A stretch of 20,185 nt of DNA. Origin: Gemmatimonadales bacterium (GTDB taxonomy: Bacteria > Gemmatimonadota > Gemmatimonadetes > Gemmatimonadales > GWC2-71-9). The stretch spans positions 1 through 20,185 of the forward strand of contig JBDIWC010000060.1 of assembly GCA_039794085.1 (NCBI GenBank). The letters run 5' to 3'. Shown here one piece after another: positions 5,461 to 20,185 of this stretch. The position numbers and the translations under genes were made by a program. Position 1 is the stretch's first letter. Each line of letters begins with the position of its first letter. The notes beneath the pieces were generated by a model. It saw only the letters and a list, made by a program, of their open reading frames with translations, searched no databases and had not been told where the DNA came from.

Positions 5461-5542
5461 GCCCTGGTGGTGAAACTGGTAGACACGCTATCTTGAGGGG
5501 GTAGTGCCGAAAGGCGTCGCGGTTCGAATCCGCGCCAGGGCA
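5461..5542 (+). tRNA. tRNA-Leu (GAG)
   Basis: Acceptor GCCCTGG/CCAGGGC, anticodon arm CTATC-TTGAGGG-GGTAG, long variable arm GCCGAAAGGC, T-loop GGTTCGAATCC. CCA not encoded. Confidence 0.96.
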
Positions 5543-5550
5543 TCGCAGGT

Positions 5551-5622
5551 GCCACTGTAGCTCAGCGGTAGAGCTCTCGATTCGTAATCGAGTGGTCGTC
5601 GGTTCGATTCCGACCAGTGGCT
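5551..5622 (+). tRNA. tRNA-Thr (CGT)
   Basis: Acceptor GCCACTG/CAGTGGC, D arm GCTC/GAGC, anticodon arm CTCGA-TTCGTAA-TCGAG, T arm GTCGG-TTCGATT-CCGAC. CCA not encoded. Confidence 0.96.
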
Positions 5623-5700
5623 CTCCCCCCCGATGTGAGTGTCGTGGCGTGCCCCCTCGACCGAGGCACGATATTCTGATCCCTGATCCCGCCGGTCGCA

Positions 5701-5798: not shown

Positions 5799-6713
5799 GT
5801 GTTGAAACCGCTGCATTACCTCGTGTTCCCCGCCGAATCCCCCGGGATCACGATCACGATCTACTATCTCTTCGTCATTCTCCTCGGGTGGCTGGTCCTG
5901 TGGCTGGTGCCCGACCTTCGCGGCGTCGTGTCGGGAGAGCGCCTGGCCGAGCTCGGCCGCACCGGCATCGAGTTCTCCTTCACCAATCCGAGTGCCGCCG
6001 CCCCCGGTCAATGGCTCTCGTGGCAGTTCGCCCTGTCACTCGGCGCCTCGATGGTCGGCGCCTTCCTCCTGATGATCCCGGCCACCTGGGTCTACATGGC
6101 CACCCGCCGCCGGAAGGGGTTCGACCAGAGCATCGTGCACACCATGGTCATCCTCGCCGTGGCCGTGTCGGGGGTGGTGGTGATCGTTCGAAACAGCGTG
6201 GCGTTGGCGTTCAGTCTGGCCGGCATTGTCGGAGCCGTCCGGTTCCGCCAGTCCCTGCAGGACACGCGCGACACCCTCTACATCTTCCTGTCCATCGGCG
6301 TGGGGCTCGCGGCCGGGGCCGAGGTGCTCGCGGCGGCGGCGGTGTTCTCCGCGGTGTTCAACTATCTGGTTCTGACCCTCTGGCGGGCGGACTACGGCCT
6401 CTGCGAGATCGGCACCCGGGCGGCCCATGTGCTCTACACCCGGGGAGAGGATCCCGCGGAGGCCAAGAAGGGGGGGCAGTTCAACGCGGTGCTGCTGGTG
6501 CGAACCCGGGATCCCGCGCAGGCCAAGAGCGCGGTGGAACCGTTGCTGGCCAAGCAACTCAAGCGGTGGCGTCTGGCCGAGGAGGACGTTCACGGCGAGG
6601 AAACGATCCTCAAATATCTCATCCGGCTCCGCAAGAGTGCCAAGCCGGGGGATGTCGAGGATGCGGTCCTCGTGGTCGGCGGTCCGTCCGTGATCGGAGC
6701 GAAGATTCATTGA
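5799..6713 (+). CDS. DUF4956-like integral membrane protein with C-terminal ACT-like domain
   Basis: Motif SVALAFSLAGIVGAVRFR...DTRDTLYIFLSIGVGLAAG typical of DUF4956, multiple TM helices. RBS GGAGAGG before GTG 5799 (TTG 5802 is an alternative start). Confidence 0.82.
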   Translation: MLKPLHYLVFPAESPGITITIYYLFVILLGWLVLWLVPDLRGVVSGERLAELGRTGIEFSFTNPSAAAPGQWLSWQFALSLGASMVGAFLLMIPATWVYMATRRRKGFDQSIVHTMVILAVAVSGVVVIVRNSVALAFSLAGIVGAVRFRQSLQDTRDTLYIFLSIGVGLAAGAEVLAAAAVFSAVFNYLVLTLWRADYGLCEIGTRAAHVLYTRGEDPAEAKKGGQFNAVLLVRTRDPAQAKSAVEPLLAKQLKRWRLAEEDVHGEETILKYLIRLRKSAKPGDVEDAVLVVGGPSVIGAKIH

Positions 6714-7579
6714 GCTTGCAGTTGCTGGTTGTCTCGGCTCTCGCCCTGGTTGGCTCCGGTCTACCGACGGCCCGCGATTCGGTCGGGGTTGAAACGGATC
6801 CTCTGCTCCCGGCCTGCCGGTGGACGGGCCCCGGGGTGGTGCGAAGTTCATTGCACCGGGTGCTCGAGGAGATCTCGGGACTGGCGGCCACTTCGGCGGG
6901 AACGCTCCTCGCCCACGATGATGAGCGGCCCGTGGTGCACGAGATCGACCCCCGGGATGGCGCGATCCTCCGCTCCTGGGCGATGCGCGGGGTGGGGCGG
7001 GTGGATCTCGAAGGGGTCGCGCTGGCCGAGGACAAAGTCTTCCTCATCACCAGCGACGGGATTCTGTTCGAGACCCGGGTGGCGCAGGATGGCGCGACGA
7101 TCCCGGCCACAGCGCTGGACACCCGGCTCGGGAGGCTCTGCGAGATCGAGGGACTGGCCTGGGACCCCGGGGACCGTGTGCTCCTCATCGCCTGCAAGAA
7201 CCCGCGGGCGCGCGGGCTCCGGGATCAGGTGACGATCTTTCGTTGGTCCGTCGACGAGCCCGGGTTGGAGATGCGGCGTCCCCATCTGGCCATTCCTCTC
7301 CCCGCGGTTCTCGATGTGGTGGGAGGGAAGCGGTTCCGGCCGAGCGGGATCGATCGGGACCCCCGAACCGGTCATTACCTGCTGGTGTCGGGACCCGATC
7401 ACGCCCTGGTCGAAATGACTCCGGAAGGAACGGTCGTCGCGGGGGTGTCCCTGAATCGACGCGATCACCCCCAGGCCGAGGGTGTGGCGGTTCTCCCCGG
7501 TCGCCGGGTGGCCATCTCGGACGAGCGGGCCGGCGGGAACCGATCGGGGACGCTGACCGTTTATCCCTGCGGAACATGA
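6710..7579 (+). CDS. Secreted SdiA-regulated/YjiK-like beta-propeller protein
   Basis: TTG start overlaps the upstream stop (TTGA). Hydrophobic N-terminus. Blade motifs EISGLA, AHDDE, DLEGVA, EIEGLAWD, RPSGI, QAEGVA, ISDE. Confidence 0.8.
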   Translation: MSLQLLVVSALALVGSGLPTARDSVGVETDPLLPACRWTGPGVVRSSLHRVLEEISGLAATSAGTLLAHDDERPVVHEIDPRDGAILRSWAMRGVGRVDLEGVALAEDKVFLITSDGILFETRVAQDGATIPATALDTRLGRLCEIEGLAWDPGDRVLLIACKNPRARGLRDQVTIFRWSVDEPGLEMRRPHLAIPLPAVLDVVGGKRFRPSGIDRDPRTGHYLLVSGPDHALVEMTPEGTVVAGVSLNRRDHPQAEGVAVLPGRRVAISDERAGGNRSGTLTVYPCGT

Positions 7580-8721
7580 CTCGCATTCATCGAGGGTTTT
7601 CTGCGATCACAATGGTGATCGCCGCGTGCACGTATGCACGGCCACTCCCGCCCGTCCCGGACGATCGACCCCCGGTGGCGGATCTGGCCTTCCGGCTCTT
7701 TCTCATCGGGGACGCAGGTGCCCCCTCGAGCTCCGACCCGGTGCTGCGTCACCTGGGCCAATCCCTCGCCGAAGCGCCGGAGCGGAGCCAGGCGATCTTC
7801 CTGGGCGACAACATCTATCCCCGCGGGCTCCCTGGACCGGGAGACCCGGACCGGGCCGAGGCGGAACGACGGCTGGCGGTGCAGGTGGACGCCGTGAAAG
7901 AGGCGGGAGCGGGAGCGGTCTTCGTGCCCGGCAACCACGACTGGGACAAGCATGGTCCCGAGGGATGGGACGCGATCCGGCGCCAGGCCGAGTTCATTCA
8001 GGATCGGGGAGGGTCGGCGATTTCGCTGTCCCCTGCGGGCGGGTGCCCCGGTCCTGTGGTGCGGGATTGGCCCCGGCTTCGGGTCATCTTCCTCGACACG
8101 CAGTGGTGGCTCCACGGGAACGCCCGGCCCGACGGCCCCGAGGATGGGTGCCCCACGTGGACCGAGGCCCAGGTGGCCGACTCGCTCCGGGGTGCTGTGG
8201 CCACCGCAGGTGACCGTCGGGTCGTGGTGACGACCCATCACCCGCTCGCCTCCGGAGGGGAGCATGGGGGCCACTTCGGCTGGACCCGGCACGTCTTCCC
8301 TTTCCGGGCCCTGAAGTCGTGGGCCTGGGTTCCGCTCCCGATCATCGGGTCGCTCTATCCCGCGATTCGGGCCTCGGGAGTGTCCGACCAGGACATCCCG
8401 GGGTCGGGAAACCGCCACATGCGGGAGGTGCTCGCCGCCGCCGTGGCGGAGCACCCCCCGCTGGTCTGGGCCGCCGGGCATGAGCACAATCTCCAGGTGA
8501 TCCGGGGAACGGTGGCGCGGCACCTTCTGGTGAGCGGGTCGGGGTACTTCGGCCATGGAGGTTTTGCCCAGTGGAGCGACTCCACGGTGTATGCCAGTGA
8601 CCGGAGCGGATACATGCGGCTGGACGTGCTGCCCGATGGGCGGGTGCGGCTGGCGGTAGTCGCCGTGGACAAAGAGGGAAACGGACGTGAGGCCTTTGCC
8701 GAATGGCTCGAGCATGAGTAA
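7576..8721 (+). CDS. Calcineurin-like metallophosphoesterase (purple acid phosphatase-like), probable lipoprotein
   Basis: ATGA overlap with the upstream stop. Lipobox-like VIAAC. Metal-binding motifs IGDAG, LGDNIY, PGNHDW, HHP, AGHEH. Confidence 0.9.
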   Translation: MTRIHRGFSAITMVIAACTYARPLPPVPDDRPPVADLAFRLFLIGDAGAPSSSDPVLRHLGQSLAEAPERSQAIFLGDNIYPRGLPGPGDPDRAEAERRLAVQVDAVKEAGAGAVFVPGNHDWDKHGPEGWDAIRRQAEFIQDRGGSAISLSPAGGCPGPVVRDWPRLRVIFLDTQWWLHGNARPDGPEDGCPTWTEAQVADSLRGAVATAGDRRVVVTTHHPLASGGEHGGHFGWTRHVFPFRALKSWAWVPLPIIGSLYPAIRASGVSDQDIPGSGNRHMREVLAAAVAEHPPLVWAAGHEHNLQVIRGTVARHLLVSGSGYFGHGGFAQWSDSTVYASDRSGYMRLDVLPDGRVRLAVVAVDKEGNGREAFAEWLEHE

Positions 8722-11284
8722 CGGAATCAGGATGAAAGGATGTCGCATGGCATGTCGCGCGTGGTGGGTTTCCGGTGCCTGTCTGGCAGGGGCGTTGCTG
8801 GGATCGTCGTCGGCGGAGGCGCAGGATTCGGTGACCGTGGTGCCGGGGGAGCAGTACGGCGCCGGTGCTCTGCATCGCTTCGTCTTCGGGGTGGGATACC
8901 GGGATCTCTGGACCACGCCGATCCGGGTGCCCGTGCTCGATCTCGGGCGGCATGAGGGAGGCCTCACCCCGATCAAGAAGGGAGGGGGACAGCAGACCGT
9001 GTCCCTCCGTTTCCGGGCCGCCGATGGCCGGGAATACTCGTTCCGGTCGGTGGACAAGGATCCGAGCTCCGTGCTGCCGGAGGACCTGCAGGGGTCGGTC
9101 GCCGAGAAGATCATCCGGGACCAGACCAGTTCGGCGCATCCGGTCGGTGCCATGGTCGTGGCCGAACTCCTGGAGGCGGTGGGTGTGTTGCACGCAAAGC
9201 CCCTGCTGGCCGTGATGCCCGACGATCCCCGGCTCGGGGAGTTCCGCGCCGAGTTCGCGGGCATGCTGGGCATGCTCGAACTCCGGCCCAACGAAGAGGA
9301 GAATCCGGAGGCCAGCTTCGCGGGGGCCATCGAAGTCGTGGGGTCGGAGAAGTTCCTGGAGGAGATCGGGAAGAACCCGTTCGTCCGCCCCGACGCCCGG
9401 GCCTTTCTGCGGGCCCGTCTCATGGACCTTTTTCTGGGAGACTGGGATCGCCACCGTGACCAGTGGCGGTGGGCCTTGATCGACAGCGACGGGCTCCGCC
9501 GCTGGGTTCCGATCCCGCGGGACCGGGACCAGGCCTTCGCCAAGTTTGACGGATTTCTCCTCCTGATCGGCCGCCAGTCCTTCCCCCAGTTCGTCAACTT
9601 CGGGGCCGGATATGCGGACATCACGGGACAGACCTGGAACGGCCGGGATCTCGACCGGTGGATCCTCCCCAACCTCACCTGGGAAACATGGCAGGAAGAG
9701 GCGACCGACCTGCAACGGCTCCTCACGGACGCGGCAGTCGAGCGGGCGGTGAACGTCCTCCCGCCCCCGTACCTTTCCCGGCAACGGGATCGGATGCTCC
9801 ACGCGTTGCGCCAGCGCCGGGACGATCTGGTGACGGAGGCCCGCACCTACTACCGGCTGCTGGCCCGGGAGGTCGACCTCCAGGCGAGCGATCGCAAGGA
9901 CAGCGCGGTGGTGACCCGAATGGGCGAGGGAGGAACGCGGGCTCAACTCTGGGCGGATGACGTGACGGCACCGTATTTCGATCGCACCTTTCTGAACGAG
10001 GAAACGAAGGACTTGCGGATCTGGCTGCGCGGGGACGACGACCTCGGCATCGTCCGGGGAAGCGGGGGCGGGCCGACCGTCCGGTTCCTGGGCGGGGGAA
10101 GCGATGATCGGTTCCGCAACGAGGCGAGTGACGGCCGGGTAAGGATCTATGATGACCGGGGGACCAACCACGCCGTGGGGGCATCGATCAACGACAAGCC
10201 GTATGTGACGGAGGCCGACTCGGTGCCTGGAGTGCTCCCTCCCCGTGACTGGGGGAGCGACCTGGACGTCTACCCCCTGGTGGGGTTCGCCCCGGACATC
10301 GGATTGCTGCTGAGCGTCAAGCCGTCCAAGACCTGGTTCGGGTTCCGCAAGCGTCCCCAGGCGAGCCGCCTCGCCCTCACGCTCTCCTGGGCCACGAGCC
10401 GGTCCACGATCAACGGAGAGCTGGAGGGGGACTGGTGGCGGGAGAACAGCGGGGTGCGGTTCGGATTTCGCGCCCGGGGTTCGGGGATCGAGGTGTTGCG
10501 GTGGTATGGCGACGGGAATAACTCGGTGCGGGGCCCGACCGACGAGTTCAACCGGGTCTCCATGCACATCCTCTCCTTCGCTCCCCACGTGGGGGTGGAT
10601 TTCGACGCCCGGAGCACCTTCGAGATCGGCCCGATGATCAAGTATTCGGTGACCGAACTCGATGGGGATAACGCAGACCGGTTCATCGCGATCGACCGAC
10701 CCTTCGGCGCCGAGCACATCGGGCAGGTGGGGGCCTTCGCGACGGTGCTGCTCGATGGACGGGATCGAGCCGTGGCCGCCACCGAGGGGGTGATGTTCCG
10801 GGCCGCGGGCTCGGTGTTTCCGGTGATCATCGCCGCGGATGGAGGCACCTTCGGGAGTGTGGAAGGGGAAACGGCGGGGTACTGGTCTCCCCTCGGCCCC
10901 AATGCTCCGACCCTGGCGCTGCGCCTGGGAGGACGCCGGGTCTGGGGTGACTATCCGTTCTTTGAAGCGGCTACGCTCGGCGGGTTCACCTCCCGCGGGT
11001 TTCGTCCCGGACGGTTCGCGGGGGATGCCGCCGTCTGGGCCAACGGGGAGGTCCGCCTCAAGGTCACCGACGCCACGCTGGTGGTCCCGGGGGAACTGGG
11101 CGTCTTCGGGTTCGGGGACGTGGGCCGGGTCTGGCTTGACGGAGAGGAGTCGGACCGGTGGCACCCGTCCGCGGGGGGGGGCGTCTGGTTCGGGATCCTG
11201 AAGCGCCGCATGACCGTGAGCATGTCCCTGGGGCGGAGCCGGGAAGGCACCCGGTTCTATGCGGGGTCGGGATTCGGGTTCTGA
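8714..11284 (+). CDS. Outer-membrane protein: N-terminal atypical-kinase-like domain, Gly/Asp-rich linker, C-terminal Omp85 (BamA/TamA-like) beta-barrel
   Basis: Signal peptide ending AEA|QD. Kinase-like motifs KGGGQQT, DLFLGDWDRHRDQW, PIPRDRDQAF. Barrel with loop motif RGFRPGRFAGD, FGDVGRVW and terminal GFGF. Start could be 8714, 8732 or 8747. Confidence 0.8.
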   Translation: MSNGIRMKGCRMACRAWWVSGACLAGALLGSSSAEAQDSVTVVPGEQYGAGALHRFVFGVGYRDLWTTPIRVPVLDLGRHEGGLTPIKKGGGQQTVSLRFRAADGREYSFRSVDKDPSSVLPEDLQGSVAEKIIRDQTSSAHPVGAMVVAELLEAVGVLHAKPLLAVMPDDPRLGEFRAEFAGMLGMLELRPNEEENPEASFAGAIEVVGSEKFLEEIGKNPFVRPDARAFLRARLMDLFLGDWDRHRDQWRWALIDSDGLRRWVPIPRDRDQAFAKFDGFLLLIGRQSFPQFVNFGAGYADITGQTWNGRDLDRWILPNLTWETWQEEATDLQRLLTDAAVERAVNVLPPPYLSRQRDRMLHALRQRRDDLVTEARTYYRLLAREVDLQASDRKDSAVVTRMGEGGTRAQLWADDVTAPYFDRTFLNEETKDLRIWLRGDDDLGIVRGSGGGPTVRFLGGGSDDRFRNEASDGRVRIYDDRGTNHAVGASINDKPYVTEADSVPGVLPPRDWGSDLDVYPLVGFAPDIGLLLSVKPSKTWFGFRKRPQASRLALTLSWATSRSTINGELEGDWWRENSGVRFGFRARGSGIEVLRWYGDGNNSVRGPTDEFNRVSMHILSFAPHVGVDFDARSTFEIGPMIKYSVTELDGDNADRFIAIDRPFGAEHIGQVGAFATVLLDGRDRAVAATEGVMFRAAGSVFPVIIAADGGTFGSVEGETAGYWSPLGPNAPTLALRLGGRRVWGDYPFFEAATLGGFTSRGFRPGRFAGDAAVWANGEVRLKVTDATLVVPGELGVFGFGDVGRVWLDGEESDRWHPSAGGGVWFGILKRRMTVSMSLGRSREGTRFYAGSGFGF

Positions 11285-11291
11285 GATCCGA

Positions 11292-14200
11292 ATGCCGGGA
11301 ACCCAGTTTCGGTGCGAGGTGGACGGGCTCGAGGCCCTGGCGTCGCTTCGGGAATCTCCTCTCCCGCTTGGGTTGAGGGCGGGGGCCCTCTCCCACAGCT
11401 TCCACCGGGATGTCTACCTCGACACGCCCGACTGTGCGCTCCGAAACCGCAAGGTGGCGTGTCGCCTGCGGATCGGGGCCAACGACCGCCGCTTCCTGGG
11501 TCTCCTGATGCCCGGCATGTCGGACGCCGACGACGAGGGGCGCTGGGAGGCCGAGGTCGAGGCCCTCGACCCCCGGGAAGCGGTGCTCGGCGACTCCGAA
11601 CCGGCCCGCCGCCTGCACGCCCTGGTCGATCCGACGGACCTGCGTCCCTGGCTGCAGGTCGAGACGGAACGCTGGATCCGCCCGGCCCGGTCCGGATGGT
11701 TCCGGCCGAGGGATCGTCTCCTCTTTCTCTACGACCACTGCATCGTCCGCTCCGGGGGCCTCGCGCGGGAGTTCCAGGAACTCGGGGTGAGGCGGGTCCA
11801 CGCGGGCGGCCCTTCCCTGGAGCGCATCGCGCGCGCCCTCGATGCCCGTCACGGTCTTCGCCCCACGCCCTATCCCAAGCATGAACGCGCCGCCGCCCTG
11901 TTGCACGCCGTGGAGGGGGAGGCCCTGGCCCGCGCGCTCGGCAGCGGGCGGTCGGTGGCCCTGCTCGCCGAGGATGAGGACCGGCTGGCGATGCTCGAGG
12001 TGGGTCGCGCCCTTCGGCTTCCCGTGGCCCGCGGAAGCGGGGAGGATGCGGTGCGGTATCTCCTGCGCCGTACCTTCGGCAGCGCCGTGGGAGACCTCGC
12101 GCTTCACGGCGTGGCACCCGGGAGCAGCGTCCGGCCCGCCGTGGAAGTGTGGTCGGCCCGGCGGATCCGGACCGATGGGGAGGGAGAGGGATCGGAGCCT
12201 ATCCGCTGGCTTCCCCTCGCCGAGATCCTCGGCCGGGTCGGGGAACCGGGCCTGCGCGATCCGGAAACCCTGGCCGCTCTCGCGGTGCTGGCTCGGTCGA
12301 GCCCCCAGTCGGCCGCCGTGGCGCTCCGGGCCTCCTCGTGGCGCACGGAGGGAGAGCGCGGGGCTCCGGTGACGGGAACCCGTCCGGTCATGGGGGAGGA
12401 CCTGGCCCGCGACGCGGATCGCGATGCGCTCCAGGAACATGCCGGATATCCCCCGGAGCATTTCCTCAACGCCGAGCTGAGCCAGATCGCCTTCAACCTC
12501 CGGGTGCTTGAACTGTCGGAGGATCGTCAGGTTCCCCTGCTCGAGCGACTCCGCTATCTCGCCATTGTCTCCAGCAACCTGGACGAGTTCTTCGCCGTGC
12601 GGGTCGGCGCCCTGAAGGAACGGACCATGCTGGCCCCCGAACGGCGCAGTCCGGACGGGATGACCGCCGAGCAGGAGCTCGATGCCGTCGCCGCCCGGGT
12701 CCCCGACATCGTCCAGCGGCAGCAACGGTGTCTCGACGAGTGCCTACACGGGCTCCGCACCCGGGGGGTGCACCTCCGGCGCTGGGGGGAACTGGCCGAC
12801 GAGGCCCGGGAGCGGCTGCGGGACCACTTTCGCTCCGAGCTGCTTCCGGACCTCACACCGCGCACCCTGACCTTGAGTCCGGGGCATCCTTTCCCTGTCA
12901 TGCCGGATCGGGTGCTGTCGTTCGCCCTCATGCTGCGGGACGACCGCAGTGGGCCCTTTCATTTTGCCTATCTGCGTCTTCCACCGCACTTGGCCCGATT
13001 CCTCCCGGTCGGCCCCCCCGGGCAGTACATCCGGCTGGAGGAGGTGGTGCGGTCCGACCTGGCGGCCCTGTACCCCGACCGGGTCGTGGAGCAGGCCTGG
13101 CTCTTCCGGGTCACCCGGAGCGCGGATCTCGACGTGGAGGAGGAGGAGGCCGGTGACTTCCTTCAAGCCATCGAGGAGGAGGTGGCCCGGCGGAGTCTCA
13201 ACCCGCCGGTGCGGGTGGAGGTGGAGCAGGGAATGCCGCGGACGCTCCGGAGCCTCCTCCTGCGCGAACTCCGATTTGAGCAACGGGAGGATCCCACCCC
13301 TCTCGGGGAAATGGATGTCTACGACATCCCCGGGGTAATGGATCTGAGCACTCTGCCCACCTTGGCCGCGCTGGCCGAAACGAAACTCGGCGCCGAGGCT
13401 CGGGGGCAGCGCCTCACCTTCCCGCCGTTCATCCCGCGGGATGCCCTGCCAATGGAGGCCTCCCTGTGGGAGACCATCCGGGCCGGGGACCAGCTCGTCC
13501 ACCATCCGTATGACGCCTTCCGCACCTCGACCCAGCGCTTCCTGGAGGAGGCGGCCGCCGATCCCCGCGTGACCACCATCAAGATGACGCTCTATCGCGC
13601 GGGCGACGTGTCCCCGGTCGTGGATGCCCTCTGCCGCGCCGCCGAGTCGGGCAAGGATGTCGCCGTGTTCGTGGAACTGAAGGCCCGCTTCGATGAGCGC
13701 CGGAACATCGCCGCCGTGGAACGGATGGAGGGGGCGGGGGTGCAGGTCATCTATGGTGTGGTGGGGCTCAAGAATCATGCGAAGGTGACCCTCGTGGTGC
13801 GACGGGAAGACGATCGGGTCCACCAGTACGCTCACATCGGGACCGGGAACTACAACGCCTCCACCGCCCGGTTCTACACCGACCTCGGCCTGCTCACCGC
13901 CGATCCCGCCATCACCGCCGACCTGACCGATCTGTTCAATCAGTTGACCGGAACCTCGGCGAGTCCGCGGGGAGTGTTCCGCCGCCTGCTGGTGGCTCCA
14001 GCCACCATGCTGGAGGGGTTCTGCGGTCTGATTGCGCGGGAGGAGGCCCACGCGCGGGCGGGCCGGCCGGCGCGGATCCGGGCGCAGCTCAACGGGCTCG
14101 ACGAGCCCGAGATCATCGAAGCACTCTATCGGGCCTCGGGAGCCGGGGTCCGGATCGAGCTGCTGGTGCGCGGGCTCTGCACCCTGCGCCCGGGACTCGC

Positions 14201-14537
14201 GGGGCTGTCGGAGCAGATCCGGGTGCGGAGCGTCCTGGGACGCTTCCTCGAACACGCCCGGATCTACCACTTTGCGAATGGTGGGGAGGGAGACGAATAC
14301 TTCATCGGGTCGGCCGACTGGCGGCGGCGCAATCTTCGCCGGAGGGTCGAGGTGGCCGTTCCCGTTCGGGATCCCATTCTGATGGATCGGCTCGACCGGA
14401 TTCTGACGGGCGGGCTCACCGAACCCGCAGGCTGGGAGCTCGACTCCGATGGAGGGTACGGGCGCCAGCAGTCCATCAGAAACGGGGTCCCTCATCTTCA
14501 CGATCGGGGAGGAGAGGTGTCCGGAACGGATGCATGA
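11292..14537 (+). CDS. ppk1: Polyphosphate kinase 1 with N-terminal CYTH-like and Nudix-like extensions
   Basis: PPK1 motifs SSNLDEFFAVRV, PGHPFP, HHPYD, TLYR, ELKARFDE, GLKNHAK, YAHIGTGNYN, LVRG, RFLEHARIY, GSADW..RNL.RRVE. About 385 extra N-terminal residues. ATG lies 7 nt after the upstream stop. Confidence 0.93.
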   Translation: MPGTQFRCEVDGLEALASLRESPLPLGLRAGALSHSFHRDVYLDTPDCALRNRKVACRLRIGANDRRFLGLLMPGMSDADDEGRWEAEVEALDPREAVLGDSEPARRLHALVDPTDLRPWLQVETERWIRPARSGWFRPRDRLLFLYDHCIVRSGGLAREFQELGVRRVHAGGPSLERIARALDARHGLRPTPYPKHERAAALLHAVEGEALARALGSGRSVALLAEDEDRLAMLEVGRALRLPVARGSGEDAVRYLLRRTFGSAVGDLALHGVAPGSSVRPAVEVWSARRIRTDGEGEGSEPIRWLPLAEILGRVGEPGLRDPETLAALAVLARSSPQSAAVALRASSWRTEGERGAPVTGTRPVMGEDLARDADRDALQEHAGYPPEHFLNAELSQIAFNLRVLELSEDRQVPLLERLRYLAIVSSNLDEFFAVRVGALKERTMLAPERRSPDGMTAEQELDAVAARVPDIVQRQQRCLDECLHGLRTRGVHLRRWGELADEARERLRDHFRSELLPDLTPRTLTLSPGHPFPVMPDRVLSFALMLRDDRSGPFHFAYLRLPPHLARFLPVGPPGQYIRLEEVVRSDLAALYPDRVVEQAWLFRVTRSADLDVEEEEAGDFLQAIEEEVARRSLNPPVRVEVEQGMPRTLRSLLLRELRFEQREDPTPLGEMDVYDIPGVMDLSTLPTLAALAETKLGAEARGQRLTFPPFIPRDALPMEASLWETIRAGDQLVHHPYDAFRTSTQRFLEEAAADPRVTTIKMTLYRAGDVSPVVDALCRAAESGKDVAVFVELKARFDERRNIAAVERMEGAGVQVIYGVVGLKNHAKVTLVVRREDDRVHQYAHIGTGNYNASTARFYTDLGLLTADPAITADLTDLFNQLTGTSASPRGVFRRLLVAPATMLEGFCGLIAREEAHARAGRPARIRAQLNGLDEPEIIEALYRASGAGVRIELLVRGLCTLRPGLAGLSEQIRVRSVLGRFLEHARIYHFANGGEGDEYFIGSADWRRRNLRRRVEVAVPVRDPILMDRLDRILTGGLTEPAGWELDSDGGYGRQQSIRNGVPHLHDRGGEVSGTDA

Positions 14538-14576
14538 GCCCCCGCCGTGGGGGTGGGTTCCCCTCCAGGAGAGCAT

Positions 14577-14768
14577 ATGATCAAAATGATCATCGGACTC
14601 GGAGTCGGGTTCGGGATCGGGGTCGGGAGCCGGTGGCTGGGCATCCCCTCCCCCGCACCCCAGGCCATCGCAGGCGCGTTTCTGGTGCTGTCGATGACCG
14701 TGGGGTACCTGGCGATGGGGGCGTGGATGAATCGTCGCCGGGCCGGTGCCGGCCGGGGGGAGGACTGA
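14577..14768 (+). CDS. XapX/DUF1427-like small membrane protein
   Basis: RBS AGGAGAG. TM-(IPSPAP)-TM architecture ending MTVGY. Confidence 0.78.
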   Translation: MIKMIIGLGVGFGIGVGSRWLGIPSPAPQAIAGAFLVLSMTVGYLAMGAWMNRRRAGAGRGED

Positions 14769-14923
14769 TGCTGGCCCAGGCGATGGGATACCTCCTCGCC
14801 TTCCTGGTGGGGGCCCTGTGCCGCCGGTTCGACGTGCCCCTTCCGGCGCCCCCGAAACTGCTCGGCGCCATACTCGTGGTGGTGATGACGGTGGGATACC
14901 TGGTGGGCGGGGAGATGATGTAG
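14768..14923 (+). CDS. XapX/DUF1427-like small membrane protein, second paralogue
   Basis: TGATG overlap and GGAGG RBS. MLAQAMGYLLAFLVGALCRRFDVPLPAPPKLLGAILVVVMTVGY has the same architecture. Confidence 0.78.
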   Translation: MLAQAMGYLLAFLVGALCRRFDVPLPAPPKLLGAILVVVMTVGYLVGGEMM

Positions 14924-14987: not shown

Positions 14988-15131
14988 GGAGGACGTAGGA
15001 CGAGGAGGACATAGGACGTAGGACTTAGGACAAGAGCACAGCAGGACCTCGATTCGTTAAGACCTAGGTCCTATGTCCTAGGTTCTAGGTCCTGTCCCAA
15101 AGGCCGGAGAGAACACTAGTGCTCGGGACGT
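14988..15131 (+). repeat. Direct repeat copy 1 (144 bp) with inverted heptamer arrays
   Basis: Aligns to 15245-15395 with 5 substitutions and one 7-nt indel. Contains a TAGGAC(A/G/T) array and the complementary (C/T)CTA(G/T)GT array. Confidence 0.92.
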
Positions 15132-15244: not shown

Positions 15245-15395
15245 GGAGGACATAGGACGAGGAGGACATAGGACATAGGATATAGGACTTAGGACAAGAG
15301 CACAGCAGGACCTCGACTCGTTAAGACCTAGGTCCTATGTCCTAGGTTCTAGGTCCTGTCCCAAAGGCCGGAGAGAACACCAGTTCTCGGGACGT
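15245..15395 (+). repeat. Direct repeat copy 2 (151 bp), overlapping the first 8 nt of tRNA-Pro
   Basis: As copy 1 but with one extra heptamer unit. Ends in CGGGACGT, the tRNA-Pro 5' end. Confidence 0.92.
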
Positions 15396-15461
15396 AGCGC
15401 AGCCCGGTAGCGCACCTGAATGGGGTTCAGGGGGTCGCGGGTTCGAATCCCGCCGTCCCGA
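15388..15461 (+). tRNA. tRNA-Pro (GGG)
   Basis: Acceptor CGGGACG/CGTCCCG, D arm GCGC/GCGC, anticodon arm CCTGA-ATGGGGT-TCAGG, T arm GCGGG-TTCGAAT-CCCGC. CCA not encoded. Confidence 0.96.
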
Positions 15462-15464
15462 CTG

Positions 15465-15494
15465 GAAAAGGCGAGCCAATTGGCTCGCCTTTTC
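15465..15494. terminator. Bidirectional intrinsic terminator
   Basis: Perfect 30-bp palindrome GAAAAGGCGAGCCAATTGGCTCGCCTTTTC with A and T tracts, directly after tRNA-Pro. Confidence 0.85.
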
Positions 15495-15549
15495 TGTGTC
15501 GGGACGCCGGGCTGGGCGATCCCCCCGCAGTCCCAGCACCCAACCCTCC

Positions 15550-15637
15550 GGGTTCTGGGTTCTGGGTATCGGGTGTTGGGCCCAGCCCCGCAGTTCCCAG
15601 TACCCAGCACCCAAGGCCCAATACCCCAATCCCCAAC
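15550..15637. repeat. Inverted heptamer arrays (STRR-like)
   Basis: GGGTTCT GGGTTCT GGGTATC GGGTGTT GGG, then CCCAGTA CCCAGCA CCCAAGG CCCAATA CCCCAAT CCCCAAC. Confidence 0.75.
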
Positions 15638-15885
15638 CGCTCGCTCGCGGCATCCGGATCGAATCCCGCACCCAGAGGGCTGGCGAGTAGGACAGCCCAC
15701 ATCGCCAAGCCCTGACGTCGGCCGCTCCGGGATTCCTCGTCAGTCCTCGTCAAAGGCACCCTCATGGCCCCTCGCCGCCGGGGCCAGCATGGAGCCCTCG
15801 GGGAGGTCGTGGGGCGCCACTTGGTGTAGGCAGCGGAGTTCCGGAGGGACTTCCCTCCGGGGTCAAATATTGTAGCGGGCGCAGT

Positions 15886-16200
15886 CTACGCGGTTATCCC
15901 CTTCGGTGCAGAATCAGTTGCTCCCTTGAGCGCAGAAAGGTGGGGGGTGGCCACCACCTGCCATGACTCCAGCCGGATTATCTTCGAAACTGAGGCTGCC
16001 CTTTCCTCCCGGAGTAGGGACTGCCACCGCTCGAAGAGGATTTTGAGGTCCTCCAAGGCCTCATCCTTAGTTCCCCCTTGGGCGATACACCCCTCATGCC
16101 CGGGGTACCAAGCTGCAAAGAGATCGACCCCTTGGGTTCCGGTCTCTTTGCGAACGACAGGTGTCGGCAAGTCGCTCGGGATTTCATTGCGGCGGTTCAT
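15886..16200 (-). CDS. HicB-like antitoxin (N-terminal HicB domain only)
   Basis: AWYPGHEGCIAQGGTKDEALEDL matches the HicB P..pGc..qG.T.eEA motif. ATGA overlap with the upstream gene. Confidence 0.75.
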   Translation of the reverse strand: MNRRNEIPSDLPTPVVRKETGTQGVDLFAAWYPGHEGCIAQGGTKDEALEDLKILFERWQSLLREERAASVSKIIRLESWQVVATPHLSALKGATDSAPKGITA

Positions 16201-16472
16201 GTTCTCTCACTCCTGACGTTCTCGACGAGGCGGATGGCCATTTGAATAGTAGACGGCGGAAGGTTCTCTGACGAGTACACGATCAAATAATGTGTGTCCT
16301 TTCGGCCTGGCCAAAACCATGAGACAATCCTCACCCCACGGGAGGATCCCAACTCCTGAAACCTAAAACCATATGCCGCAAGAAGGGCGCCAACATCGAT
16401 GTAACCCCATCCCTTCGGATCTTCCTTCATTTCCTTGAGGAGGCGCTCTCCCTTCTGCTCGTCTGGAATCAC
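16197..16472 (-). CDS. Divergent HicA-like toxin
   Basis: 91 aa from a GTG that overlaps the upstream stop (GTGA). K.ERLL.EM..DP.GW...DV..LL..YGF pattern and a C-terminal helix as in HicA-type proteins. Directly upstream of the HicB-like gene. Confidence 0.6.
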   Translation of the reverse strand: MIPDEQKGERLLKEMKEDPKGWGYIDVGALLAAYGFRFQELGSSRGVRIVSWFWPGRKDTHYLIVYSSENLPPSTIQMAIRLVENVRSERT

Positions 16473-16894
16473 TGGGTGGGTGGCTGGGCAGGAGGTAGAG
16501 TCTCTCCTTGGACAACGGTGAACGGGATCCGTGCCGCTTCCTCTCCATTCCAACTCAGGACGAAGGAGTACTCCCCGTATCGTGGAAACTGCAGGTTGGG
16601 AAATGGGAGCGCCAAGCTGAACGTACGACTTTGTCCGGCAGGAATCTGGTCCGATTTGACTTCACCCTGTCCTTCGATGAGATGATGCCCGTCCTCGTCC
16701 CTGAGATAGACACGTATCGCGTGCGACTTACTGCCATCCTGGAACTCCAGCCGGAGCCGGAGTGCGACCACCATGGTCGGAACCCCGGCTGGTAGCGTGG
16801 GTGAGGTGATCCGATCGAAGACGCCCATGATATTGAGCTTCCCGCCGTCGGCGACGTTCGCATAATCCGCCAAGACAGCCACTTCAACCACCAT
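16469..16894 (-). CDS. DUF6941-like beta-sandwich protein
   Basis: RBS AAAGGA. MVVEVAVLADYANVADGGKLNIMGVFDRI...L.FPRYGEYSF.L..NG......PF.V pattern, 141 aa. Confidence 0.75.
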   Translation of the reverse strand: MVVEVAVLADYANVADGGKLNIMGVFDRITSPTLPAGVPTMVVALRLRLEFQDGSKSHAIRVYLRDEDGHHLIEGQGEVKSDQIPAGQSRTFSLALPFPNLQFPRYGEYSFVLSWNGEEAARIPFTVVQGETLPPAQPPTQ

Positions 16895-17163
16895 GAGAGG
16901 TCCTTTTGAGTCGAGGGATGTTCGGGCTAGGGTGAGGGCCCTGCACCACCCCCTGGTGGAACTATTTGCCCTACTTGACCGCGGTGGAGATTGGTGAAGT
17001 AATCCGATCGCTCCCAGAAGGTAGCCACGACTTGGTGGTCCGTCCATGGTTGCCCATGCTCGTACCCCGACCGGGAACGAGCGGGAACTGCTGGGGTAGA
17101 TCCTTGCATGGACCCTCTTTGAGGCATACACTCCGGAACTGACTCCAACCCCGAGGGGTTCCA

Positions 17164-17601
17164 ATGGCTAGACGGCTTCTCGCACGGGTCCTCCTTCTCG
17201 GCGCCCTAGCCGCCCCGGCGTGCTCGTCGTCCACTACTCTGGCTTTATCTCCGCCCCCGCCTCCTCCGCCACCACCTCCGCCGCCTCCTCCGGCCCCCGC
17301 GCCACGGTGTTCCGGCGGTCAGTTGTGCGCCCTGGGGTGGGAGGTCGCCGCGCAAGCCGGGGATACGACGTGGGTCATTACGGCCCGGATCTGGAATGAT
17401 GGCCCGACGTGCGCCACAGCCATTGAGGGGAGAGGGTTCCACGGGCCCGGGGGAGTACATACGTTCCGCTCCCCCCGGGACATGCCCGAGCCTCTCTTGG
17501 CCCGCCAAGAAGGACTCGCCAAGTTCGGTGCGACGACTCTGGCAGCGACGCAACTGGATTCCATTCGGATTATCGGATGGACGCCGGGGTCGTGCGGGTG
17601 A
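17164..17601 (+). CDS. Hypothetical exported protein, probable lipoprotein with polyproline linker
   Basis: GAGGGG RBS, MARR plus hydrophobic stretch plus AAPAC, polyproline run encoded by mixed codons, small beta-rich domain with four further Cys. Confidence 0.6.
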   Translation: MARRLLARVLLLGALAAPACSSSTTLALSPPPPPPPPPPPPPPAPAPRCSGGQLCALGWEVAAQAGDTTWVITARIWNDGPTCATAIEGRGFHGPGGVHTFRSPRDMPEPLLARQEGLAKFGATTLAATQLDSIRIIGWTPGSCG

Positions 17602-17880
17602 GGGGCCATCCCGGGGGGTTGATGTAGCCGGGAAGTGTGCGTGAGCGGTGGGCAGTCCGTAGACAGTTCATCTGGGTTCTCGACCAACAACCTTCGCTTC
17701 GGCGTGGACACGGCAAGGGTCAGGTATGGCACTGTCATTTCTATCACAACCCAAGGACCGAGACTCGGGTCCCTCGAGCGCAATGCTCGAACTAGGCGTC
17801 GGCCGGGTCAATCTGTTGAGACTGATCGGGTGACTAGGATTCCTGCGCTTCTCGGAGCTGCCTATGATGACTCCGCAGTG

Positions 17881-19656
17881 ATGCCTGTCGACATAGACTG
17901 CTATTTCGCCAAGCGCGATATGGCGCTGAGGGCGATCGAGCGTATGAAGGACTCCGAAGACACGGAGGCCATTGATCATTTGTGGTGGGAAGTAGCCCTG
18001 TTGCGCTTTAGTCCGGTGGCGAGTAATGGTGGCTGCTATATGGGTGACTCGTATGAAGTATTCGCCGTAAAGTTCGGCCTCACGCCGGAAACGGTACGTT
18101 TCGCTGACACGCGGGCAGTTGAGACACGAGATATTGCGCTCAAGCTTCATTATCTCGGCTTCGTCCTCGACAGGATGCCTCCAACGGGGAGAGCGTGGGT
18201 TGACCGAATGCGAGAGATGCTCCTTTCGTGGCGGCAGTATGCTGACGAATGTCGAATGGCAGCTGCCACTAACCCCACAGGGCACGCGGCCATGTGCGTT
18301 GAGCGTGCCCTGAAAGCTATCGGAGCGATTACGTCACGCCCCGGTGTTCTGCGCGACATGGAACCCACTGAATGGGCAGGATGGGTGTTGCAGCTCGCGC
18401 ACGACGTCCGTGACTTTCCAGGAGACGAGTCGGATGAATCGGACTTCTGGTATCATCGCTGGGTGGCTCCCTTTCTTCGAACGCTCACTAGTCTGCCCGC
18501 GACGGCTTCTCCTCCGCCCTTGCGCCATCAAGCCTTTGCGTTACTGGAGGCCGCAGCGGCCTACTATGAAGCATCCCCCCTGGCGGACCATTTCGCGCTC
18601 CTTGTTGCCGACGTGCGTTATGAGCTCCGAACACACTGGGGGGAGACCGATGCTCATAAGGACAAGGTGAGGGAACAGTTCGCTGCACTTATGCGCCGCG
18701 CCGACCTGCACAAGACGACCGGCAATGGGATGCTTACTCAGCATTTCGTTCGCGAGGCGCTACGTCTGGCGGAGGAGCATCGGCAGTATTTCACGGCAGC
18801 TCAGGTTGACGACTTGATGCGCGAAGAAAGAGCCGCAATAGAACACGCGATCCGAGCAGGTGAGTTCAAGGAGGTGTCGGTGTCGATGGAATTCCCTCGC
18901 GAATATGTCGAGCGATTGCGGGCCACCCCCGAAGAGACAATGTCAGATCTCATAGCCGAAGTTGCGATACCAGTGCCAACGACAGGGTTGCGAGAAGCAG
19001 CGGCTAAGGGTGAGACCCCCCCGCTGTACTTGCTTTTCCCCGCAACAGTGGTGGGGGGTGGGAAGGTTGTAGGCGAGTCACCTGGTGAGGAGAAGAATCT
19101 ACAACTTGAGGGTGAGCGCAACGCACTTTTTCTCGCGGCCCTCGCTGGCCAAGCGATGACCACGACAATTGTCAGTGCCGCTTCCCGCATCGGGCTGACG
19201 ACCGAGCACCTTATTACTCCCCTCACCCCGCTCGCGCTTGATGATGGCACAATAGGACTGATCCGTCATGGGTGTGAGCGGATGATTGCCAAGGACTTTA
19301 TTTCTGCATGCCATATCCTCGTACCTCGTGTGGAGGATGTGCTGAGGCAGCATCTCCGGTCACGCGGCCTTCCCGCGACCGAGTTCAAGCGGGACGTAGG
19401 TGATGGTACGAGCCGGACCGACGACGAATCGGTGGGTGCCATGCTGAGGGGCTGTCTACCAAACGGCATCACGGTACGCGCCTACCTAGGAGACGAGTTC
19501 ACGCAACATATCGAGAGAACGATGTTGTCGCAGACCGGACTAACGCTGCGCCATTCGTTTGCGCACGGGTTGGCCAAACCGGAGCACTGCACACCGGACA
19601 ATGCGGGGATTGTCCTTGCCATTCTGTACAAGCTTGCGGCAATAGCTAGTTCCTAG
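17881..19656 (+). CDS. DUF4209-like protein with C-terminal HEPN-type RxxxxH motif
   Basis: Long helical ORF in lower-GC DNA. C-terminal DFISACHILVPRVEDVLR...GLTLRHSFAHGL. Start uncertain: open from 17635, first ATG at 17881. Confidence 0.72.
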   Translation: MPVDIDCYFAKRDMALRAIERMKDSEDTEAIDHLWWEVALLRFSPVASNGGCYMGDSYEVFAVKFGLTPETVRFADTRAVETRDIALKLHYLGFVLDRMPPTGRAWVDRMREMLLSWRQYADECRMAAATNPTGHAAMCVERALKAIGAITSRPGVLRDMEPTEWAGWVLQLAHDVRDFPGDESDESDFWYHRWVAPFLRTLTSLPATASPPPLRHQAFALLEAAAAYYEASPLADHFALLVADVRYELRTHWGETDAHKDKVREQFAALMRRADLHKTTGNGMLTQHFVREALRLAEEHRQYFTAAQVDDLMREERAAIEHAIRAGEFKEVSVSMEFPREYVERLRATPEETMSDLIAEVAIPVPTTGLREAAAKGETPPLYLLFPATVVGGGKVVGESPGEEKNLQLEGERNALFLAALAGQAMTTTIVSAASRIGLTTEHLITPLTPLALDDGTIGLIRHGCERMIAKDFISACHILVPRVEDVLRQHLRSRGLPATEFKRDVGDGTSRTDDESVGAMLRGCLPNGITVRAYLGDEFTQHIERTMLSQTGLTLRHSFAHGLAKPEHCTPDNAGIVLAILYKLAAIASS

Positions 19657-19807
19657 ACTCCTAGGGCGGTCCGTATGGCGCGTTGCGCTATTCCGATTAG
19701 GAGACAAACCGTGCCGCGCTAATGTCATACCTATTCCCCGAGATTTGGGCCTTGGCCTTCTGGATGTCCTCCACAGAGCACTCGGGCCACCGTGCGGAGT
19801 GCTGGGA

Positions 19808-19836
19808 TTGATCTTCCCGACCGATATAATTACATT
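19808..19836 (+). promoter_or_regulatory. Sigma70-type promoter for the XRE gene
   Basis: TTGATC (19808-13), 17 nt, TACATT (19831-36). An adjacent perfect TATAAT lies at 19825-30. Confidence 0.55.
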
Positions 19837-19843
19837 CATTTAC

Positions 19844-20104
19844 ATGGTCGCCACCCTTCCTCGTCGTCTCGCACAGGCCCGCCGGGCCCGGGGCCTCAGC
19901 CAAGCAGGGCTTGCCCAAGCTGCGGGGGTGCCCCACTCCATGACGATCTCCGCGTGGGAACGCGGGGTGAACCTCCCCCGGGTGGACGACCTGGCTACGA
20001 TGGCGGGTGTGCTCGGCGTGTCCTTGGACTGGCTCTGCGGCCTGACGGCGGAGGGAGGCCCCCTGTGTCAGGATAGTTGTCGCATCGCCCGTCACCTTCT
20101 GTGA
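19844..20104 (+). CDS. XRE/Cro-CI family HTH transcriptional regulator
   Basis: RLAQARRARGLSQAGLAQAAGV...TISAWERGVNLP....L..MA.VLGVSLDWLCG is a canonical HTH_XRE. Confidence 0.9.
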   Translation: MVATLPRRLAQARRARGLSQAGLAQAAGVPHSMTISAWERGVNLPRVDDLATMAGVLGVSLDWLCGLTAEGGPLCQDSCRIARHLL

Positions 20105-20185
20105 CGGGGTGAGGTGCTCACCGCTGGGGGCGACGAGGTGACCGAATGATGACGGCGTACAGTAGTTCCTTCAAGGATCGGATGG
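20066..20185 (+). mobile_element. Left end of a probable IS3-family insertion sequence (truncated by window edge)
   Basis: Begins TGTCAGGATAGTTGTCGC (5'-TG, resembling IS3-type terminal IRs as I recall them). Followed by RBS GAGGTG and an OrfA-like start. Confidence 0.6.
20146..20185 (+). CDS. Probable IS3-family transposase OrfA, N-terminal fragment
   Basis: MMTAYSSSFKDRM matches the YS..FK N-terminus of HTH_Tnp_1-type OrfA proteins. Only 13 codons are visible. Confidence 0.55.
   Translation, partial: MMTAYSSSFKDRM

Follow-up and report, generated by a model that had tools for sequence, protein, structure and literature searches.

The window analysed here is a stretch of 20,185 nucleotides (nt) from a Gemmatimonadales bacterium (contig JBDIWC010000060.1), in which seven co-oriented open reading frames (ORFs) on the + strand (5799..14923) are all open over the coordinates that an earlier note on this DNA had given them. 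Five of them, the core genes, encode a DUF4956 membrane protein, an SdiA-regulated family protein, a metallophosphoesterase, a predicted kinase carried on an Omp85 barrel (the barrel-kinase) and a CYTH-like/Nudix-like/PPK1 fusion, PPK1 being a polyphosphate (polyP) polymerase. This module is real and conserved, and it is a new diderm variant of a published but unexplained type that combines cotH, VTC and DUF4956 genes. The features of the gene run are as follows, lengths being in amino acids (aa).

5799..6713, + strand: DUF4956 (MgtC-like) inner-membrane protein, 304 aa, with a putative GTG start (PF16316, E 1e-12; hydropathy)
6710..7579, + strand: SdiA-regulated family exported protein, 289 aa, with a putative TTG start (PF06977, E 1e-11)
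7576..8721, + strand: metallophosphoesterase, probable lipoprotein (PF00149; five purple-acid-phosphatase-type motifs)
8747..11284, + strand: kinase-Omp85 fusion, ORF open from 8714 with probable start at 8747 (structural model, homologue starts; signal peptide by eye)
8927..9862, + strand: predicted atypical kinase fold of the CotH/PI4K type, residues 72-383 as numbered from 8714 (VIA Z, conserved motifs)
9869..10183, + strand: Gly/Asp-rich beta-strand linker (secondary structure of the model)
10256..11281, + strand: predicted Omp85-type beta-barrel (Foldseek, VIA Z)
11292..14537, + strand: CYTH-like/Nudix-like/PPK1 fusion, 1081 aa (TIGR03705 above cut-off)
11292..11906, + strand: CYTH (triphosphate tunnel) domain (profile match to 5a60, E 4.5e-4)
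11934..12311, + strand: candidate Nudix-like domain with no intact Nudix box (atlas score 0.89 to NUDIX clusters; alignment)
14577..14768, + strand: XapX-domain micro membrane protein 1, probably incidental (TIGR03510, E 1.5e-13)
14768..14923, + strand: XapX-domain micro membrane protein 2, probably incidental (TIGR03510, E 8e-12)

The surroundings of the barrel-kinase were compared across 119 pooled loci including the window, after exclusion of 4 duplicates, 3 paralogous loci of the same genome and 23 short loci. A phosphoesterase is present in 53 of these loci, DUF4956 in 44, an SdiA-type gene in 39, PPK1 in 31 and CYTH in 25, and a nucleotide-transporter-like gene occurs in 16, an HD/PycTM gene in 6 and a second phosphoesterase in another count of 6. 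All five core genes come together in 9 of the 119 loci (window counted) and their clustering is far beyond chance, which bears out the conserved gene set proposed in the earlier note and defines the five genes as a conserved Gemmatimonadota module. The proposal that the CYTH-fused PPK1 accompanies DUF4956 is likewise sustained, as the fusion has DUF4956 beside it in 18/18 cases among the 90 loci of at least 12 kb, and in 14 of 20 cases in the phylum sample described below. Plain PPK1 adjoins the barrel-kinase in Ignavibacteria (L086, L087, L094). In Bacteroidota, where coverage consists of 4 plasmid records among 6 matches, kinase-barrel and phosphoesterase are encoded as one fusion, as in Fulvitalea, where the fused gene adjoins an HD/PycTM gene and a cyclase-domain gene; five such fused copies occur among the loci. 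Many barrel-kinases have none of these partners. Genes of the HD-PycTM ('Pycsar effector') type replace DUF4956 beside the barrel-kinase in L061, L068, L087, L091, L094 and L145, in some cases with a cyclase-domain gene and PPK1, and this PycTM group may therefore serve a housekeeping function. The 16 loci with ATP/ADP-transporter-like neighbours (Pfam TLC, E 3e-8 and 4e-4) include none with DUF4956 or PPK1, as would be expected if the kinase needs a donor brought across the membrane. Such transporter-like genes (TLC/MFS, HEAT) flank the barrel-kinase on both sides in L006, L007, L037, L046, L052, L053, L058, L059, L065 and L084, and a distant homologue (30%) of the nucleotide-transporter-like protein is encoded on contig C90 of this genome (7501-8670).

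The linkage of kinase, DUF4956 and polymerase was followed through one even sample of 101 genomes of the phylum, which was searched for DUF4956, the barrel-kinase, a small exported kinase, the CYTH fusion and PPK1, a neighbour being a gene within 8 kb. After removal of 2 matches below the cut-off, 53 of the 55 DUF4956 genes were retained, 14 of which lie near a barrel-kinase and 23 near the small exported kinase, with none near both. The remaining 16 divide into three with VTC and a CotH/beta-helix gene, three with VTC, three with PPK1 and seven with none of these (two near contig ends), so that all told an exported kinase stands beside DUF4956 in 40/53 cases (14 + 23 + 3). The 20 CYTH-PPK1 fusions lie near a barrel-kinase in 6 cases and near the small kinase in 10, which makes 16 with one of the two kinases close by, and near DUF4956 in 14; a kinase or DUF4956 is close to 18 of them and the other two are cut by contig ends. 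All 18 genomes with CYTH-PPK1 contain an exported kinase, and since 10 of the 18 also have a plain PPK1 elsewhere, the fusion looks dedicated. One of the 35 barrel-kinase matches comes from an unpublished genome, and the conclusions do not depend on it. On these counts the core is a triad of exported kinase, DUF4956 and polyP polymerase with slot-like swaps between forms of each. In L189-L192 the small CotH-fold kinase directly abuts CYTH-PPK1, with no DUF4956 in the stretch covered, which in two of these loci ends at a contig end.

The genome of the window contains four DUF4956 genes, namely that of the window itself and one each on contigs C7, C19 and C15, the last of which is solitary. On C7 (45394-52153; L099:5395-12154, - strand) the order is VTC, DUF4956, TPR, CotH/beta-helix and phosphoesterase, with flippase, glycosyltransferase, deacetylase and epimerase genes immediately upstream of the run, in the non-pel setting of a diderm; L150 and L151 are similar. 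Its VTC gene is a true one (PF09359, E 6e-38) and fills the polymerase slot there, and the parallel that the earlier note drew with DUF4956-VTC-CotH gene groups is thus real within this very genome. On C19 (56544-58850; L100:4545-6851, - strand) DUF4956 is paired with a 345-aa exported kinase that has conserved Cys and a weak CotH match and is predicted to fold like CotH (pLDDT 88.5; Foldseek E 4e-10 to 5jda). The small CotH-like family is largely missed by Pfam, with weak matches in 3/18 members, and gave no sequence match in the PDB and no profile match to the barrel-kinase; because these sequence and profile comparisons are negative, the two kinase forms are linked by fold and motifs only. 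A divergent phosphodiesterase-family gene occurs in about 11 loci of the C19 type, including the C19 copy.

The CYTH/Nudix-like/PPK1 fusion contains the four PPK1 domains (PF13089, PF02503, PF17941 and PF13090) and matches TIGR03705 with 682 bits against a cut-off of 466. The motifs KNHAK and FLEHAR, whose histidines we take to be the counterparts of E. coli His435 and His592, are present in the window and in 25 and 26 of 26 homologues respectively, and by its sequence the PPK1 part is intact. The CYTH domain falls just below the cut-off of PF01928 (E 2e-4), a family that is precomputed for several homologues, and it has a profile match to YgiF, an inorganic triphosphatase of E. coli and one of the CYTH triphosphatases (5a60, E 4.5e-4, positions 37-208). 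Active CYTH/TTM enzymes carry metal-binding acids in their ExExK and ELELE motifs. The window domain retains many invariant Arg residues and has lost most of these acids: it reads TQFR, its ELxLE-type motif takes the form E-x-(K/Q/G)-x-R, and past the invariant E163 none of the 38 matched homologues (of 53) is acidic at the next two motif positions. Unlike YgiF, it is fused to Nudix-like and PPK1 domains and not to CHAD. The Nudix-like part scores 0.89 to NUDIX clusters in the atlas and has no Pfam match, and the position of the Nudix box, whose consensus includes the REUxEE acids, reads GSGEDAVRYLLRRTFG and is devoid of them. The VTC family PF09359 is absent from the fusion in a Pfam scan. 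All 53 proteins found to share this N-terminus have PPK1 domains, and every one with a named organism belongs to the Gemmatimonadota.

The barrel-kinase gene has no Pfam match, including none to PF08757 (CotH) or POTRA; a family-level match to Omp85 (E 3e-20) lies below the cut-off and a sequence search against the PDB returned nothing. In the AlphaFold model (30 sequences, pLDDT 83.7) the C-terminal part is predicted to be an Omp85-type barrel (Foldseek E 5e-11 to BamA; VIA Z 26.2 to the TamA barrel). Residues 72-383 can be superimposed onto PI4KII-alpha (4pla; VIA Z 15.1, root-mean-square deviation (rmsd) 4.1, 249 aligned), CotH (5jda; Z 14.9, rmsd 4.0, 246 aligned) and CtkA (Z 13.2), and the domain is therefore predicted to be a kinase with the atypical PI3K/PI4K/CotH/HipA-type fold. 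R111, K115, D243, D245, H247, D270 and D272 are invariant in 30 homologues, and the kinase motifs DRHxx[QN] and PxD[RH]D are kept in 119/128 and 117/128 domains. Residues 386-490, at the place of the POTRA domains of other Omp85 proteins, are all beta in the model and form a Gly/Asp-rich linker that may resemble RTX repeats. The patatin-Omp85 protein PlpD likewise has its enzyme N-terminal to the barrel, where it is shown to be periplasmic (PMC11116518), and the window protein differs from it in having a kinase fold and not a patatin domain and, going by the model, a beta-rich Gly/Asp linker at the place of POTRA. By analogy with PlpD the kinase domain would face the periplasm, surface display also being possible. 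The invariant basic residues next to the active-site motifs (R111, K115, R246, R271), together with the linkage to PPK1 across phyla, also fit a periplasmic enzyme that processes polyP, either as a phosphotransferase or running backwards to regenerate ATP, and that does not modify the envelope; the relatives of solved structure that were found all have protein or lipid substrates, and we regard this as very improbable.

The phosphoesterase matches PF00149 (Metallophos, E 2e-4) and is probably a lipoprotein, as suggested by a lipobox-like IAAC with Cys18 that was read by eye. It has all five motifs of the purple acid phosphatases, which we take to be DxG, GDxxY, GNH(D/E), VxxH and GHxH, and each of them recurs in 42-44 of the 47 homologous domains of full length. 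The SdiA-regulated protein (PF06977) has a hydrophobic N-terminus and a weak Phytase-like match (E 7e-5); its family points to a propeller, and its presence in 39/119 loci marks it as an accessory. The purple-acid-phosphatase motifs and the Phytase-like match speak for a system that runs inwards, the barrel admitting polyP or organophosphates, phosphatase and propeller releasing phosphate, DUF4956 aiding its uptake and PPK1 storing it. The second phosphoesterase in 6/119 loci, the divergent phosphodiesterase at C19 and Ppx-like genes in 4/181 loci also agree with scavenging. Against it, homologues of PstS, PstC, PstA and PhoU were found in none of the 181 loci, the phoBR-pstSCAB-phoU-ppx cluster of this genome lies on another contig than the window, and what accompanies DUF4956 most constantly is a kinase whose motifs are intact (40/53), the phosphatase being present in 53/119 loci and the propeller in 39/119. 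The earlier note had held such a reverse direction to be equally likely; the direction retains a place among the alternatives but is judged the weaker one, and on this evidence it is improbable.

The gene junctions described in the earlier note are found as TTGA at 6710, ATGA at 7576, a 7-nt gap at 11285-11291, a 39-nt gap at 14538-14576 and TGATG at 14766, the one that does not hold being the overlap at 8714-8721, which requires the first ATG of the barrel gene and is probably an artefact of start choice. The closest barrel-kinase homologues (95% and 86% identical) are annotated as proteins of 845 aa, a length that corresponds to a start at ATG 8747, and so the phosphoesterase and barrel genes are probably separated by a gap of 25 nt; AAAGGA precedes this ATG in the window, an arrangement that is also seen in locus L021. 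In the same-genus locus L002 the gaps are about 40 nt between phosphoesterase and barrel and about 90 nt between barrel and PPK1, and strict translational coupling is therefore a local trait that is not conserved there. The wider gaps in L002, the variable order and content of the loci and the occurrence of each gene alone would suit a loose cluster of phosphate-related genes which share regulation and no physical pathway. Such a cluster would leave unexplained the slot-like swaps of kinase forms (0/53 with both) and of polymerase forms as well as the Bacteroidota fusion of kinase and phosphatase, and it appears quite improbable.

The DUF4956 protein lies above the cut-off of PF16316 (48.5 bits against 30.6) and consists of four hydrophobic segments, located by a hydropathy scan, and a soluble C-terminal domain; A-x-A-F-x-L and F-R are invariant among 49 homologues. 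When DUF4956 was modelled in complex with the CYTH/Nudix-like part, the pair between which the earlier note had proposed a hand-off of polyP, the score was 0.00, and this is used neither for nor against an interaction. An exported kinase has to find its phosphoryl donor in a compartment that is generally held to lack ATP. The reading that we favour, with a confidence somewhat short of even, is that the five core genes make up a supply line which carries phosphoryl groups outwards to a periplasmic kinase, with the phosphatase reversing the action of the kinase. PolyP would be made by the CYTH-PPK1 fusion at the inner membrane and DUF4956 would carry the donor over (transport and its direction both belonging to the proposal). 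In the periplasm, an envelope substrate would be phosphorylated by the kinase-fold domain of the Omp85 protein, a modification that the phosphatase-type lipoprotein would undo. The observed pattern agrees with three slots, for a cytoplasmic donor maker (VTC or CYTH-PPK1), a membrane partner (DUF4956 or a transporter-like gene) and an exported kinase (barrel-fused or free). Rather more than half of our confidence in the supply line goes to polyP itself as the exported donor, and the lesser part to a close alternative in which the donor is ATP regenerated from polyP by PPK1. As the sister modules sit in glycan loci, the substrate most likely belongs to the surface glycans, lipids or matrix proteins that pass the barrel. 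What is observed is the gene set, the identity of the domains, the conservation of catalytic motifs and the linkage in genomes between kinase, DUF4956 and polyP polymerase; the folds are predicted. The slot-like linkage in the phylum sample, the kinase-phosphatase fusion in Bacteroidota and the PPK1 genes beside the barrel-kinase in Ignavibacteria count in favour of the supply line, as does the finding in Streptococcus intermedius that in one medium aggregation fell to less than half on deletion of either the CotH gene or the MgtC-like gene (PMC12345266).

Several points weigh against an outward supply. CotH-type kinases are users of ATP and the 5jda structure contains AMP; to our knowledge no CotH-type kinase that uses polyP has been described. 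The converse linkage is loose, DUF4956 being nearby for only 15/35 barrel-kinase and 23/41 small-kinase matches and the fused PPK1 for only 6/35 barrel-kinase matches and 14/53 DUF4956 genes, so that many kinases have no linked supply. The triad counts are a pattern that carries no formal test, because the profile of the small kinase was built from neighbours of DUF4956 and related genomes are not independent. The mutual exclusion of transporter-like genes and DUF4956 was set aside as proof, since the naive p of 5e-4 reduces to 2-3 independent pairs on the kinase tree, which is not significant, and it serves as a lead only. No second PPK1 and no PPK2 was found in this genome, which is 94.7% complete, and as the sole one found the fused PPK1 must also do the housekeeping. 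For S. intermedius, deletion of the VTC gene is reported without a drop in aggregation, and Pel levels changed in one direction in the CotH mutant and in the other in the MgtC-like mutant (PMC12345266); relatives of DUF4956 are described as MgtC plus ACT, with MgtC a regulator rather than a transporter (10.1101/2024.04.20.589940). The opposite Pel effects, the description as MgtC plus ACT, the weak match of DUF4956 relatives to MgtC (E 5e-3), the eroded CYTH acids and the many kinases devoid of a linked supply gene would all sit well with signalling, in which DUF4956 is an MgtC-like membrane regulator that relays the state of kinase and phosphatase to PPK1, the degenerate CYTH and Nudix-like domains are sensors of ligands or partners and the kinase obtains its ATP by another route. 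Signalling does not account for a tunnel domain on two unrelated polymerases (VTC and PPK1) beside DUF4956, nor for the nucleotide-transporter-like neighbours in 16 loci, and we give it a modest chance, well under even.

Eukaryotic VTC combines a tunnel domain and polyP synthesis with a small membrane protein, and couples synthesis to translocation. The window resembles it as a working analogy in which DUF4956 is likened to Vtc1 without demonstrated homology, and it differs in the other catalytic fold of PPK1 and in its eroded tunnel acids. A trio of cotH, polyP polymerase and DUF4956 genes has been described beside Gram-positive pel genes, its mechanism being left open (10.1101/768473; 10.1101/2024.04.20.589940; PMC12345266). 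Like the window, this trio (S. intermedius SIR_1594-1592) places an exported CotH-fold kinase, a DUF4956/MgtC-like protein and a tunnel-bearing polyP polymerase side by side. In the window, by contrast, the kinase is carried on an Omp85 barrel, the polymerase is a PPK1 whose CYTH domain is degenerate, the gene set further includes a phosphatase lipoprotein and a propeller protein, and the flanking ORFs scanned contain no pel or glycan-synthesis genes, whereas C7 has a glycan setting. The authors of the pel trio report none outside pel loci; C7 of this genome holds a VTC trio in another glycan locus. For the form found here the earlier remark that there is no experimental description stands, but for the Gram-positive genes of the cotH, VTC and MgtC-like types knock-outs have been published (PMC12345266). 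No published account of a protein that joins kinase and Omp85, or of a CYTH-PPK1 gene next to DUF4956, was found, subscription papers and supplements being outside the scope of the search.

A second link to published work concerns the 'Metallo' subfamily of Omp85 proteins, which has been described as a metalloprotease fusion (PMC4104836, Heinz and Lithgow 2014; again PMC11358297), a kinase being unmentioned in the main texts of both articles. Like that subfamily, the window combines PF00149 with an Omp85 barrel, in two genes and with motifs of the phosphoesterase type, against the published metalloprotease. The third and fourth genes of the run together match a 1226-aa Fulvitalea protein (31% over gene 4), and PF00149 and the barrel, which are separate genes in the window, share one chain in L088, L138, L145, L146 and L148. 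The two genes appear to be a 'Metallo' Omp85 split in two, and its enzyme, with the motifs of a purple acid phosphatase, is probably not a protease. A Riemerella metallophosphoesterase was considered as a characterised Metallo-Omp85 and set aside, as a review calls it an effector of the type IX secretion system (T9SS).

The two micro membrane proteins at the end of the run match the XapX family TIGR03510 above its cut-off (50.0 and 44.6 bits against 27.8). The earlier note had counted them as parts of the module, but XapX occurs in 1/119 barrel-kinase loci, the window itself, and in 1/5 relatives searched, a sister species; with this near-absence beside the barrel-kinase the pair was dropped from the core and is probably incidental. 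Just upstream of the gene run and on the same strand lie tRNA-Leu (5461-5542) and tRNA-Thr (5551-5623). A promoter scan found one sigma-70-like site, upstream of this tRNA pair (1 against 0.4 expected), and a terminator scan stayed at chance level (4 found against 5.1 expected). Two 126-nt repeats that are 96% identical (15006-15131 and 15270-15395), each with an internal inverted repeat made of AGGAC units, stand shortly before tRNA-Pro (15388-15462). Past this tRNA (15462-20185) G+C drops to 0.57-0.63 and the DNA contains unannotated ORFs, DUF6941 and a weak DUF4209 match, and the region is possibly the edge of an integrated element.

The module bears on the source of the donor for secreted CotH-type kinases outside the cytoplasm and on how polyP leaves bacteria, a subject to which the extracellular polyP of unknown origin that is reported in Bacillus cereus (PMC13484657) also belongs. 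It names candidate parts, and the swaps between barrel-kinase and small CotH, between VTC and CYTH-PPK1 and between DUF4956 and a transporter-like gene make the question testable. The module also allows the 'Metallo' Omp85 subfamily to be seen as outer-membrane barrels that carry a kinase paired with a phosphatase. A bolder version, which we consider rather unlikely, is that bacteria export polyP through DUF4956 acting together with a polymerase that bears a tunnel domain (VTC or CYTH-PPK1) and that exported kinases of the CotH/PI4K fold, the one on the Omp85 barrel among them, use polyP directly as their donor; if true, this would be a general route to phosphorylation outside the cytoplasm without ATP.

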